From a virus (Duplodnaviria; Heunggongvirae; Uroviricota; Caudoviricetes), in the IMG/VR virus record IMGVR_UViG_2695420653_000007, positions 1-16,682 of that record: a stretch of 16,682 nucleotides of DNA; one strand, written 5' to 3'. This document shows positions 11,508 to 15,268 of this stretch, in pieces. Position 1 is the stretch's first letter; each line of letters starts with the position of its first letter. The translations under genes and the position numbers were made by a program. Under the pieces are notes generated by a model. It was not told the DNA's origin and did not search any database. It saw only the letters and a list, made by a program, of their open reading frames with translations.

Positions 11508-12224
11508 TCAAACCAGCCTTAGTTTTGTCTCAATTGCAACGCCTATAATCTTGCAGTTTCCATTGATTGGCACGAGAGGCCATGCAGGGTTAAGTCCCTT
11601 GAGGTATTTATTTCCGCCGTCGATTATCAGCTTCTTGAATGTTGCTTCGTTAGAGTCAGAAAGTTTTGCTATGACCAAGCTGCCGTTGATCGCCTCCCTT
11701 CCGGTATCGAAAAGAACGAATGTTCCCTCTGGAATGCTTAACCCAACCGGTGCCGTCATTGAATCACCTTCCACTTTAAGCCAAAACGCATTACCTTGAA
11801 TATGCGCGTCAGACTCAAGCCAAACATCTATGTCTTTAATGGTGTATGGTTCGCATGCTTCACACCACGAGCCAGCCTGGATACTGCTTAACACCGGATA
11901 CCTCTTTCCTGCTCTGTATTCCCCTGCATACCTTACGTTGGCATCGCTCTTAAGGCTTTCTGCCTGTTCTGCAACCTTGGCAGCAATTGACTGGCTAAAA
12001 TCAGCAATTGAGACTTGCAACAGTCGTGCAAAACCAGATGCAACCTCAACGTTTAGCGCGTTTCTGCCATTAAGATAATGCCCTACCGCTCCTTGGGTGA
12101 TACCAAGTTCATCAGCAATTGAGTATTGGGTTATTCCCAACTCTTTCTTTTTTGACTCATACAAAGCCTTAAGCCGCTTAGCGTCTTCGAGCTGTTCTGT
12201 CGTCAGTGATTTCTTATTTTCCAT
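11508..12224 (-). CDS. cI: CI repressor (238 aa; N-terminal HTH, C-terminal LexA-like S24 autopeptidase domain)
   Basis: N-terminus LTTEQLEDAKRLKALYESKKKELGITQ parallels lambda cI ([27 protein letters not shown]); C-terminal FWLKVEGDSMTAP and FKKL motifs (catalytic Ser/Lys); no SD before ATG, consistent with a leaderless pRM transcript. Confidence 0.9.
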   Translation of the reverse strand: MENKKSLTTEQLEDAKRLKALYESKKKELGITQYSIADELGITQGAVGHYLNGRNALNVEVASGFARLLQVSIADFSQSIAAKVAEQAESLKSDANVRYAGEYRAGKRYPVLSSIQAGSWCEACEPYTIKDIDVWLESDAHIQGNAFWLKVEGDSMTAPVGLSIPEGTFVLFDTGREAINGSLVIAKLSDSNEATFKKLIIDGGNKYLKGLNPAWPLVPINGNCKIIGVAIETKLRLV

Positions 12225-12301: not shown

Positions 12302-12330
12302 TTGTTCATGGTTAATAACGGAGTGTGCAT

Positions 12331-12525
12331 ATGATTCGAATGACACTTGCCGATTACGCCAAAATCCATGGACAGGCTAAAGCAGCCAGTGACTTTGGTG
12401 TAATCCAGTGCGCTATCAGCAAGGCCATTCTGGCAGGCCGTAACATTATGGTTACGGTAAAGCCTGATGGCAGTGTGATTGGAGAGGAAGTTCGTCCTTT
12501 CCCAAGCAACAAGAAAAACAAATAG
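12331..12525 (+). CDS. cro: Cro repressor (64 aa)
   Basis: [64 protein letters not shown] parallels lambda Cro (...[57 protein letters not shown]); GGAG 7 nt before ATG at 12331. Confidence 0.85.
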
Positions 12526-12633: not shown

Positions 12634-12912
12634 ATGCAACTTACAAGTACTCGCAAGAAAGCGAATGCAATTACAAGCAACATCCTAAATCGAATTGCTG
12701 TACGTGGTCAGCGAAAGGTTGCTGATGCATTAGGGATCAATGAATCGCAAATTTCGCGATGGAAAGACAGCTTCATCCCAAAAATGGGAATGCTTCTGGC
12801 TGTTCTTGAATGGGGTGTTGAAGACGAGGAGTTGGCGGAACTGGCTAAGAAAGTAGCCAGAATGCTGACAAAAGAAAAAGCCCCGAAGAACGGCGAATTC
12901 TTCGAGGCCTGA
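12634..12912 (+). CDS. cII: CII transcriptional activator (92 aa)
   Basis: ...GINESQISRWKDSFIPKMGMLLAVLEWGVEDEELAELAKKVARMLT matches lambda cII (...GVDKSQISRWKRDWIPKFSMLLAVLEWGVVDDDMARLARQVAAILT); ATG at 12634 preceded by AAGGAAA; track ORF starts further upstream but that region contains nutR. Confidence 0.85.
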   Translation: MQLTSTRKKANAITSNILNRIAVRGQRKVADALGINESQISRWKDSFIPKMGMLLAVLEWGVEDEELAELAKKVARMLTKEKAPKNGEFFEA

Positions 12913-12946
12913 TGTAGAAAGACTGGATCAATCCACAGGAGTAATT

Positions 12947-13591
12947 ATGACATACGAAAATGACAAATTCCAGGTTCTGAAGAGCATGAAGGTGCCAGAT
13001 GATTTTAAATCAAATGGCTTTGTTTATGTGCTTTCGAATGAGTGCATGCCGGGAATTTATAAGATTGGGATGACTAAGCATTCACCAGAAGTTAGGGCTA
13101 AAGAAATTTCAGCCTCTACTGGCGTTCCTAAGCCATTTAAGGTGATAGCAGCCTTTCATTCAAATAATCCCGCATCAGATGAAAAACTTATTCATAAAGC
13201 CTTTGCAAAAGAGAGGCTTAGTGATAATCGAGAGTTTTTCAAGCTTGAAGATAATGATCTTTATGAATCTCTAAATGAAATAAGGGCGCTGGTTGGCCCT
13301 GAAAGAAATGGCGAGACGGCAGAATACGCAATTTACGACTCATTCATTTCTTTTCGCCATGAAAATGAGCTTGATCTTAATGAGGAGCTTATAGAGCAAG
13401 GTCTGGGTAGTGTAGTTGGTCATCTTCCTGCGATGAAAAATTTCCTTATTCGCGCCGGAATTGATTACGCGAAGCAACTGATAAGCAAATATAACTCATC
13501 GATAGTTATTAATACAGATGGCAGTGTGGTGATGGTTAAGTCTCTTGAAGCCCAATGCTTTGATGCGGAGGTTGGAAATGAGCCTTGCTGA
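12947..13591 (+). CDS. T5orf172 (GIY-YIG-like, MUG113-type) domain protein (214 aa), AT-rich insertion between cII and O
   Basis: N-terminal region GFVYVLSNECMPGIYKIGMTKHSPEVRAKEI ... EKLIHKAFAKERLSDNREFFKLE fits the remembered T5orf172 signature (G-VY-V, KIG-T, R--E, H--F, REFF); AGGAG 7 nt upstream; visibly more AT-rich than cII and O. Confidence 0.65.
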   Translation: MTYENDKFQVLKSMKVPDDFKSNGFVYVLSNECMPGIYKIGMTKHSPEVRAKEISASTGVPKPFKVIAAFHSNNPASDEKLIHKAFAKERLSDNREFFKLEDNDLYESLNEIRALVGPERNGETAEYAIYDSFISFRHENELDLNEELIEQGLGSVVGHLPAMKNFLIRAGIDYAKQLISKYNSSIVINTDGSVVMVKSLEAQCFDAEVGNEPC

Positions 13592-14420
13592 AGTATTTTA
13601 CCTGCCGAAGAGTGAACCTGTTGAACAGGAGCGAAGAGTGGCTGATATCGATGATGGTTACACCAGATTCGCTAACGAGCTGCTGGAAGCTATCGCAAGT
13701 GCCGATTTAACCGCTCGCCAGTTGAAAGTTATGCTGGCCTACGTCCGGAAAACATATGGATTCAATAAGAAAACAGATCGAATAGCCGATGAGCAAATTG
13801 CTCAGTTAACAGGACTGTCAAGGCAGAATGTTAACAAGGCTAAAAAAGAACTGATTTCAATGAATTGCCTGTTTATGGATGGAAATCAAATCGGTGTAAA
13901 CAGTGAGGTATCTGCGTGGCAATTCAGCAAGTGTCTCCAAGTTAGCAACTTTGTCTCGAAGTTAGAGACAAAAAATGTCTCCAAATTAGAGACACTCAAT
14001 GTCTCGAAGTTAGAGACACACAAAAGACATTCTTTAAAGACAAAAGAAAATATTAATAAACCCCCTATATCCCCCAAAAAAGTTTCTCAGAAGTTCGACC
14101 CGCTAGAAACAGAGTTGCCTGATTGGTTATCAGCAGAAACATGGTTGTCGTGGGTTACCTATCGCAAGGAGATAGGCAAGTCGATCAAGTCTAAGCAAAG
14201 TGTCACTCAGGCTATCAACGTTCTAAGCAGAAGTCTGGAGAAGGGATATACACCTGAAGAAATTATAAACCAGAGCATCGCCAGTGGTTGGCAGGGGATT
14301 TTTGAGCCCAAGACTCCAAAGGGGAAACCTCAACCGAGGCCGCAGCATCGAGCTATGCAGGAAAACTTTGCCACCAAAGATTACGGACAAACTGAAATGC
14401 CTTCATGGGCGCAGGAGTGA
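13578..14420 (+). CDS. O: Replication initiator O (Phage_rep_O N-terminal domain; contains ori iterons)
   Basis: ERRVADIDDGYTRFANELLEAIASADLTARQLKVMLAYVRKTYGFNKKTDRIAD parallels lambda O (ERNVADLDDGYARLSNMLLEAYSGADLTKRQFKVLLAILRKTYGWNKPMDRITD); GGAGG 7 nt before ATG at 13578; iterons inside coding sequence. Confidence 0.85.
   Translation: MSLAEVFYLPKSEPVEQERRVADIDDGYTRFANELLEAIASADLTARQLKVMLAYVRKTYGFNKKTDRIADEQIAQLTGLSRQNVNKAKKELISMNCLFMDGNQIGVNSEVSAWQFSKCLQVSNFVSKLETKNVSKLETLNVSKLETHKRHSLKTKENINKPPISPKKVSQKFDPLETELPDWLSAETWLSWVTYRKEIGKSIKSKQSVTQAINVLSRSLEKGYTPEEIINQSIASGWQGIFEPKTPKGKPQPRPQHRAMQENFATKDYGQTEMPSWAQE
13932..14060. repeat. Origin of replication: four 19-bp palindromic iterons (TGTCTCnnnnnnnGAGACA type) at about 13932, 13952, 13977 and 14000, followed by AT-rich tract
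   Basis: TGTCTCGAAGTTAGAGACA occurs twice exactly (13952..13970, 14000..14018), with variants TGTCTCCAAATTAGAGACA and TGTCTCCAAGTTAGCAAC; they encode the repetitive SKLET peptide in O; A/T-rich 14019..14060. Confidence 0.7.
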
Positions 14421-14422
14421 AC

Positions 14423-15268
14423 ATGACGCTGGATGAAAAGATCTCCCAACTGGAGAAAAAACTTGCAGAATTGAGTTCTCCGCCAATTGCTATCGAGCAT
14501 ACATCTGTAGAAATTGGCACTGGCATCTGTGAAAAACATGGTGAGTTTGAGCAGCGTAACCGTTACTCGACTGGGCCAATTAAGTTTGCCTCAAGACCTA
14601 GCGAATGCCCGGAATGCATGAGAGATGAGCTTATTCGGCTACAGGCAGAGAAGATTAAAATCGACGAGGAATCACGTAAGCGCAATGTCGAGTTTCTGTT
14701 GAATAATCTTGATATTCCTGAACGATTCAAGGGTTGCACACTACAGAACTACGAGCCAGTCAACGACGATGCAAAGAGAGTGCTCAGGGTGTGTCAGGCA
14801 TACGCCAGCAAATGGCCTGAGAGGTTACAGAAAGGCGGTGGGCTGGTTATGTGTGGAAAGCCTGGTACTGGAAAGAATCATCTTGCACTGGCTATCGCCC
14901 GGCACGCAATTACGGAACATCAAAGCTCAGCTATTTTCACAACGGCGCTGAAAATTGCCAGAGAATATAAATCAACATGGTCTAAAAACTCCACCCGCAC
15001 AGAGGATGAAGTGATCCGACAGTTCACTAAACCTGACCTGCTAATTATCGATGAGGTTGGTGTGCAGTTTGGAAGCGAGGCGGAAAAGATGATCATGTTC
15101 GAAATCATCAACACCCGCTACGAGTGCATGAAGCCAACGATCCTGATTAGCAACCAGAGCAAAGATGAACTGTCTGCATTCATTGGTGAGCGTGTTATTG
15201 ACAGGATGAATGATGGCGGCGGGTGCACTCTTGCGTTTACATGGGATAGTTACAGGAGCAGATCGTGA
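14423..15268 (+). CDS. DnaC-like helicase loader (IstB/DnaC AAA+ ATPase) with N-terminal Cys-rich zinc-ribbon-like motif
   Basis: Walker A GKPGTGKNHLALAIA and Walker B LLIIDEVG; CxxH...CPEC near the N-terminus; AGGAG 7 nt before ATG at 14423, just after the O stop. Confidence 0.85.
   Translation: MTLDEKISQLEKKLAELSSPPIAIEHTSVEIGTGICEKHGEFEQRNRYSTGPIKFASRPSECPECMRDELIRLQAEKIKIDEESRKRNVEFLLNNLDIPERFKGCTLQNYEPVNDDAKRVLRVCQAYASKWPERLQKGGGLVMCGKPGTGKNHLALAIARHAITEHQSSAIFTTALKIAREYKSTWSKNSTRTEDEVIRQFTKPDLLIIDEVGVQFGSEAEKMIMFEIINTRYECMKPTILISNQSKDELSAFIGERVIDRMNDGGGCTLAFTWDSYRSRS

Follow-up and report, generated by a model that had tools for sequence, protein, structure and literature searches.

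A GIY-YIG nuclease gene between cII and O of lambdoid phages: a candidate homing-endonuclease-like cassette

In lambda and in phage N7, cII is followed directly by the replication initiator gene O, and an earlier interpretation of the DNA analysed here, made from its letters alone (the sequence-only reading), took this order as the rule for lambdoid phages; in other prophages, other genes fill the slot. The DNA in question (16,682 nucleotides, referred to as the window) comes from a mosaic HK620/P22-like lambdoid phage or prophage and covers its early region, and here the slot is filled by an intact ORF encoding a 214-aa protein with a nuclease domain. What does this gene encode, how did it come to lie beside the initiator gene, and what might it do there? 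A cI-like repressor gene lies at 11508..12224 on the minus strand and is followed by cro at 12325..12525. Next come, on the plus strand, cII (12634..12912; PF05269, E 3.6e-42, over aa 30-120 of a long ORF), for which ATG 12634 is the probable start, CII being 92-98 aa long in related prophages in RefSeq; an intergenic leader (12913..12946, where 12913 is the first base past the cII stop); the nuclease ORF (12947..13591), recognised by its matches to PF13455 and PF10544; and O (13578..14420; PF04492, E 3.4e-36). After O comes a DnaC/IstB-like loader gene (14405..15268), assigned by a profile match. The Shine-Dalgarno (SD) sequence of the nuclease ORF is AGGAG at 12937-12941, with the ATG 5 nt further on, and that of O is GGAGG at 13566-13570, ahead of ATG 13578. 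If O starts at this ATG, the 14-nt overlap between the two genes that had been proposed holds, and RefSeq has the same overlap in four prophages. Placement of the gene in the pR operon was also borne out, no promoter of its own being detected: a search of the plus strand between pR and the nuclease gene found no sigma-70-like promoter. A scan of the whole window against Rfam gave no match at the gathering threshold.

The nuclease domain occupies approximately aa 22-114. Both Pfam MUG113 (PF13455; E 1.8e-16, aa 38-111, 60.9 bits against a cut-off of 22.3) and Pfam T5orf172 (PF10544; E 2.3e-15, aa 24-112, 57.4 bits against a cut-off of 20) match far above their gathering scores, so that the T5orf172, GIY-YIG-like relationship suggested from the letters alone stands, as does the description of a 214-aa ORF with a T5orf172-type N-terminus and approximately 100 unmatched C-terminal residues. 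The accompanying statement that T5orf172 has no settled function is outdated, since this is a subfamily of the GIY-YIG nucleases with two members shown to be nucleases, Odn (PMC8263062) and SNIPE (PMC13190303), whose activity needs a conserved Glu. In an alignment of 39 homologues (33-98% identity), Y27, Y38, R50, H83, R95 and E96 are invariant, as are the motifs VY27V, IY38KIG, R50 and R95-E96-F-F, and several hydrophobic and glycine positions are conserved in the C-terminal half. Catalytic roles were mapped onto the motif residues by their position in the motifs and by reference to E180 of Odn (PMC8263062) and E414 of SNIPE (PMC13190303). The AlphaFold2 model of the 214-aa protein is confident (pLDDT 86.9, pTM 0.71) and matches GIY-YIG nucleases in its alpha/beta fold. 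Aligning the family with the catalytic domain of I-TevI by hhalign was uninformative (probability <1%), and the family profile found no relative among PDB sequences. From its domain and motifs the gene product is predicted to be an active endonuclease of the T5orf172 subfamily of GIY-YIG nucleases. An identical protein in E. coli genomes is already named “GIY-YIG nuclease family protein” by PGAP; the copy in phage Bas106 is annotated “hypothetical protein” and can now be re-annotated. Two further sets of relatives were observed. Residues 1-172 match positions 275-439 of phrog_8430 (439 positions, function unknown), and therefore some phage relatives have an extra N-terminal region of approximately 270 aa before the nuclease module. 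Homologues of the nuclease domain only, 35-40% identical over aa 18-120, are found in Rhizobium, other Alphaproteobacteria and metagenome-assembled genomes (L027-L036).

The remainder of the protein, aa 115-214, forms a family-specific acidic domain. Modelled alone it has a confident fold (pLDDT 80.6), for which neither a fold match nor a profile match was found; it has no Pfam match at E<=10, no similarity to O by BLASTP (E 57), and only two true relatives among 1.84 billion representative proteins. It is acidic throughout the family (net charge -2 to -12, mean -7.5), and the pI of the whole protein is approximately 4.5-5. Profile and fold searches of the 214-aa protein found no DNA-binding domain. 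Both halves are alike in being under purifying selection, with dN/dS of 0.06-0.13 as estimated from intermediate, unsaturated pairs, leaving out the E. coli alleles, which have too few substitutions, and distant pairs, whose synonymous sites are saturated. Each of the 18 copies examined is intact, and no decayed copy was seen in the 5,426 complete E. coli genomes searched. The sequence P0032, considered as a possible decayed copy fused to O, was rejected as it lies in a metagenome contig with many fragmented genes and is probably an assembly error.

Comparison with empty sites shows that the gene is part of a larger unit, a cassette of 670 bp (12953..13622, plus strand). N7 and two E. coli prophages align with the window as far as 12952, the alignment resuming at 13623, with flanks that are 97-100% identical, and each of the three holds 42 bp in place of the 670 bp of the window. 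Those 42 bp, which do not differ between lambda and N7, form the start of O. Through its left border the cassette captures the SD and ATGACA that are used to start O in empty-site phages, and at its right end it carries an O start of its own (13566..13622, plus strand), consisting of the GGAGG SD, ATG 13578 and 15 new codons, MSLAEVFYLPKSEPV, and overlapped by the last 14 nt of the nuclease gene. This O leader is homologous to that of lambda type but has diverged from it. Two parts of the sequence-only reading change as a result. The gene does have an AGGAG sequence, as was said, but this is not simply its own strong SD, the same SD and ATG serving O in phages without the gene; and “inserted between cII and O” is right relative to the canonical arrangement, but the event is a replacement, in which the first 15 codons of O were changed as well. 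Judged from these alignments, the cassette is a discrete, sharply bounded unit that replaces the lambda-type 5′ end of O. The metagenomic contig L041 holds a second allele, approximately 82% identical, whose O leader has diverged along with it; the junction with O falls at the same point, and the first 100 nt of O beyond it are 96% identical. Neither direct nor inverted repeats flank the cassette. Insertion of a transposon or IS type was rejected, there being neither terminal inverted repeats nor a target-site duplication.

The left border falls at the end of a conserved junction (12913..12952, plus strand) consisting of the leader, the SD AGGAG and ATGACA, which aligns with lambda and N7 and in empty-site phages is the leader and start of O. 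This 40-nt junction occurs in 459 of the 5,426 complete E. coli genomes ahead of various genes, encoding a replication protein, a DUF2740 family protein or hypothetical proteins, and because it precedes different genes we regard it as a shared module-exchange junction. The junction sequence, ACTGGATCAATYCACAGGAGTAATTATG, is largely kept ahead of the relatives found in other genera. Its minus strand also holds the start of oop. An oop antisense RNA unit is apparently present on the minus strand at 12878..12972, with a probable terminator hairpin (12878..12910, minus strand; 14 pairs and then a T run) inside the 3′ end of cII, at a position matching lambda oop, and with the -10 of the oop promoter pO (CATAAT with an upstream TG, minus strand) overlapping ATG 12947. 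In lambda and N7 the oop -35 is TTGAGT, within the first codons of O, and the cassette swaps it for TGGAAT (3/6 matches). Production of oop RNA may therefore be lower in carriers, and that of CII higher in consequence, and loss of the -35 could shift cII levels and the lysis-lysogeny decision. Another promoter-like site on the minus strand, at the right end of the cassette (13624..13595; TCACAA-type -35 TCAACA, 18-nt spacer, TAAAAT), points back into the nuclease gene; promoter-like sites in the region are no commoner than in shuffled sequence, and this one is at chance level.

The lower GC content of the gene relative to its neighbours, claimed previously, is real and modest. The nuclease gene has a GC content of 40.0% (35% at third codon positions, GC3), compared with 45.5% (GC3 44%) for cII, 43.8% (GC3 46%) for O, and 44-47% (GC3 44-50%) for neighbouring genes overall; the cassette lies in the lowest 6% of 670-bp windows.

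The gene is rare. It is found in 19 of the 5,426 complete E. coli genomes, and the cassette-type O leader is found in exactly the same 19. A further 28 E. coli genomes have the same O allele from 13623 onwards without the cassette, so that carriers make up 19 of 47. Among 50,697 phage records only Bas106 carries the gene; N7 has a near-identical empty site, and mEpX1 is also without it. O in the gene-less N7, mEpX1 and 28 prophages is 96-99% identical, and the gene is not essential for replication, since the empty-site phages are viable isolates; the alternative that it might be an essential replication component is thereby set aside. Carriers share one O allele; on the left, their cI/cro/cII genes come in at least five different sets, and the left border of homology varies between 12524 and 12922. 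Within O, the SNPs at 13760 and 13904 are found in all four combinations with cassette presence, and recombination has therefore taken place within approximately 140 bp of the cassette. In the eight sequences compared, SNPs from 13760 on are shuffled between carriers and non-carriers, and 13633 alone tracks the cassette, yet is shared by one empty site.

Beyond E. coli, relatives with 36-83% identity are present in Klebsiella, Pantoea, Pectobacterium, Enterobacter, Mixta, Dryocola and metagenomes, the whole family amounting to approximately 40 clusters in 5.8 billion. In all 16 of the non-E. coli contexts examined, the gene lies directly upstream of a replication initiator gene and downstream of cII or YdaT, and the adjoining initiators fall into at least four types by their N-termini. 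The Klebsiella homologue, approximately 62% identical in its C-terminal half, is beside an O with an unrelated N-terminus.

We favour, tentatively and with a little less than even confidence, the reading that this is a free-standing, homing-endonuclease-like nuclease cassette, whose nuclease activity, target site and homing we infer from sequence comparison. The nuclease gene would be transcribed early from pR, borrowing the ribosome binding site and ATG that otherwise start O, and translation would be passed to O via the overlapping start that the cassette supplies. When a carrier meets a cassette-less lambdoid genome, whether that of a co-infecting phage or of a prophage already in the cell, the nuclease would cut that genome near the conserved oop/pO/O-start junction, and recombinational repair from the carrier would copy the cassette in, sometimes with linked sequence of the replication module. 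The carrier itself would be immune, the 42 bp to the right of ATGACA having been replaced. These 42 bp would make a suitable homing target, being very conserved and adjoining an essential gene. Homing is favoured because of the nuclease domain, the exact borders, the patchy presence in near-identical backgrounds, the lower GC, the replacement in carriers of a lambdoid-conserved sequence beside an essential gene, and the second allele at the same site; the varied left flanks, the recombination nearby, the relationships of the family and fold, and the lack of transposon-type repeats also argue for it. Of the traits of homing endonuclease genes (HEGs), the cassette thus shows the polymorphism with exact borders and the altered site in an essential gene, and lacks an attached DNA-binding module. 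The main evidence against homing is this lack of a recognisable DNA-binding domain, together with the acidity of the protein. In addition, the intact copies and strong purifying selection fit a useful gene better than the cycles of gain and decay of an HEG, the recurrence of the same slot beside four unrelated initiator types could equally mean a functional tie to replication, and the signal of co-conversion of the flanks appears weak. Passive spread through homologous recombination at the conserved junction could also account for the distribution, as it would yield the same pattern of presence and absence.

The nearest precedents for homing come from other phages. The Seg and Mob nuclease genes of T4 are intergenic, and their products cut endonuclease-less relatives near the insertion point, while sequence differences shield the carrier and neighbouring markers are converted along with the insertion (“marker exclusion”; summarised in PMC10448857). 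The cassette gene shares the genomic signature of these GIY-YIG and HNH genes, although cleavage and homing are demonstrated for the T4 proteins and only proposed for the cassette gene; moreover, Seg proteins are classical GIY-YIG nucleases with basic C-terminal DNA-binding modules, in contrast to the T5orf172 domain and acidic C-terminus of the cassette protein. Phage T5orf172 genes have themselves been treated as HEGs that lie near essential phage genes (Barth, Dunham & Seed 2023, PMC10448857), on a genomic signature that the cassette matches in several features. Those of ICP1, T5-like and VpaJT-like phages have the same Pfam nuclease domain as the lambdoid gene and likewise lie beside an essential conserved gene, fall at a genetic exchange boundary, and are present in some close relatives and absent from others. 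They carry a zinc finger (CapR, DUF723, DUF4397) or RepA_N at the opposite end from the nuclease (87% of T5orf172 HEGs have zinc-finger DNA-binding domains; PMC10448857) and are often frameshifted, whereas the cassette family has an acidic, unmatched C-terminus and no decayed copies, and is found in temperate lambdoid phages, always in one slot.

Some of the features that sit badly with homing would be accommodated if the gene were instead a domesticated conflict nuclease, not self-mobilising, that is expressed early in the lytic cycle and cuts the DNA of a competitor, whether a lambdoid phage, a satellite, a plasmid or the host, a reading we regard as possible though rather doubtful. A role against competing phages or host defences, suggested in the sequence-only reading, is one option, and selfish homing accounts for the population pattern no less well. 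Its target would be chosen via a protein partner or by localisation and not by a DNA-reading domain of its own, as in Odn or SNIPE, the two T5orf172 nucleases for which roles in conflict have been shown experimentally (PMC8263062, PMC13190303). The strong purifying selection without decayed copies, the accessory and rare occurrence of the gene, and an acidic C-terminal domain suited to protein binding are consistent with such a role, as are the matches of the nuclease domain to the PADLOC defence models PDC-S57 (E 4.4e-29) and PD-Lambda-1 (E 1.4e-11). However, only the nuclease domain matches these models: the PDC-S57 match covers aa 21-113 and model positions 3-94 of 212, falling short of a full-length match, and that to PD-Lambda-1 aligns only model positions approximately 354-450, the protein being without a TM segment or DUF4041. 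SNIPE (PD-lambda-1) is a bacterial protein of approximately 490 aa with an N-terminal TM segment, DUF4041 and a C-terminal nuclease domain (PMC13190303), as against 214 aa and no DUF4041 here; the nuclease domains of SNIPE and PDC-S57 are homologous to that of the cassette protein, but both are host-side defence genes and the cassette gene is a phage gene of the pR operon. Odn of ICP1 (PMC8263062) is likewise a T5orf172 nuclease with activity dependent on the conserved Glu and with a functional link to a replication module, but it reads origin iterons via a RepA_N domain copied from the initiator of its target, and the C-terminal half of the cassette protein is unlike O and is not an initiator-like DNA-binding domain. 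An Odn-like architecture was accordingly rejected, there being no RepA_N or Phage_rep_O match in addition to the E of 57 against O. The conflict reading also leaves the strict slot beside the initiator gene unexplained.

That slot could reflect an accessory function in replication, in which a structure-specific or origin-proximal nuclease, co-translated with O, would be recruited to O or the replisome by its acidic C-terminal domain, and might process replication intermediates or aid the switch to rolling-circle replication. We consider this unlikely. The gene is dispensable, N7, mEpX1 and the 28 prophages without it having an O that is nearly the same, and it is very rare among lambdoids; furthermore, the C-terminal half of the Klebsiella homologue is well conserved even though the N-terminus of the adjacent O is unrelated. 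Slx1, a structure-specific GIY-YIG endonuclease (PDB 6seh, 7cq2), is 11-13% identical to the cassette protein in sequence, and differs in being eukaryotic and in having a RING/PHD finger where the cassette protein has its acidic domain.

It is also conceivable, though on balance improbable, that the nuclease is guided by a partner, with the acidic domain docking on the co-translated initiator or another origin-bound protein, so that cleavage would take place at initiator-bound origins. The cuts could fall in the origins of competing lambdoid replicons, or in that of the phage itself, where they would trigger a switch in the mode of replication. A partner-guided nuclease would explain both the missing DNA-reading domain and the fixed position upstream of four unrelated initiator types.

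Two readings survive poorly. Anti-phage defence by the prophage, with expression in the lysogen as for PDC-S57 or SNIPE, takes its support from the two PADLOC matches, but we hold it to be very improbable because the gene lies downstream of cro and cII in the cI-repressed pR operon, with no sigma-70-like promoter detected on the plus strand from pR to the gene; again, it is only the nuclease domain that matches the defence models, and the gene is also present in Bas106, which was isolated as a virulent phage. Scarcely credible is a non-catalytic DNA-binding or regulatory protein, as the historic annotation “T5orf172 DNA-binding domain” and the UniProt names still reading “DNA-binding” in BFVD would have it, given that Y27, Y38, R50 and E96 are invariant in the 39 homologues, the fold matches GIY-YIG nucleases and the protein is acidic.

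The domain and its nuclease character are already published, as is the interpretation of phage T5orf172 genes as HEGs, and RefSeq uses the label GIY-YIG nuclease. The family, the anatomy of the cassette between cII and O, the acidic C-terminal domain and the strict linkage to initiators appear to be undescribed, and a full-text literature search on GIY-YIG, lambdoid phages and homing endonucleases returned nothing relevant. Lambdoid mosaicism is usually ascribed to passive recombination at conserved junctions. Should the homing reading be true, the cassette would give a clean and tractable example of a selfish nuclease gene among temperate lambdoids, and active cutting at the border of cII and O would be part of the reason that this junction is a hot spot of module exchange. 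Natural pairs of carrier and empty site exist, with Bas106, a cultured phage of the BASEL collection, on one side and N7 or mEpX1 on the other, and make the proposal directly testable. Should homing be wrong, the acidic domain and the strict initiator linkage would point to an undescribed partner-guided nuclease.

Several smaller observations concern the surrounding operon. Four origin iterons, TGTCTCSAARTTAGAGACA, of 17-24 nt and spaced 20-24 nt apart, lie inside O at 13929..14023; they translate to the VSKLET repeats of O, precede an A-rich stretch, and constitute a lambda-type ori of the ordinary kind within O. Just downstream of the cassette region, O or the loader gene is broken by IS elements (ISKpn26, IS3 family and IS2) in three E. 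coli prophages (L013, 7758-8738; L015, 7645-8858; L017, 6108-7336), and these prophages are probably replication-defective. Other free-standing genes of endonuclease type are found in the nin region of related prophages, encoding a NUMOD4-motif HNH endonuclease and an HNH endonuclease between ninB and dam (L013, 11515-12024; L018, 10475-10984; L016, 9732-10259), and HEG-like genes therefore recur in the early right operons of these lambdoids.
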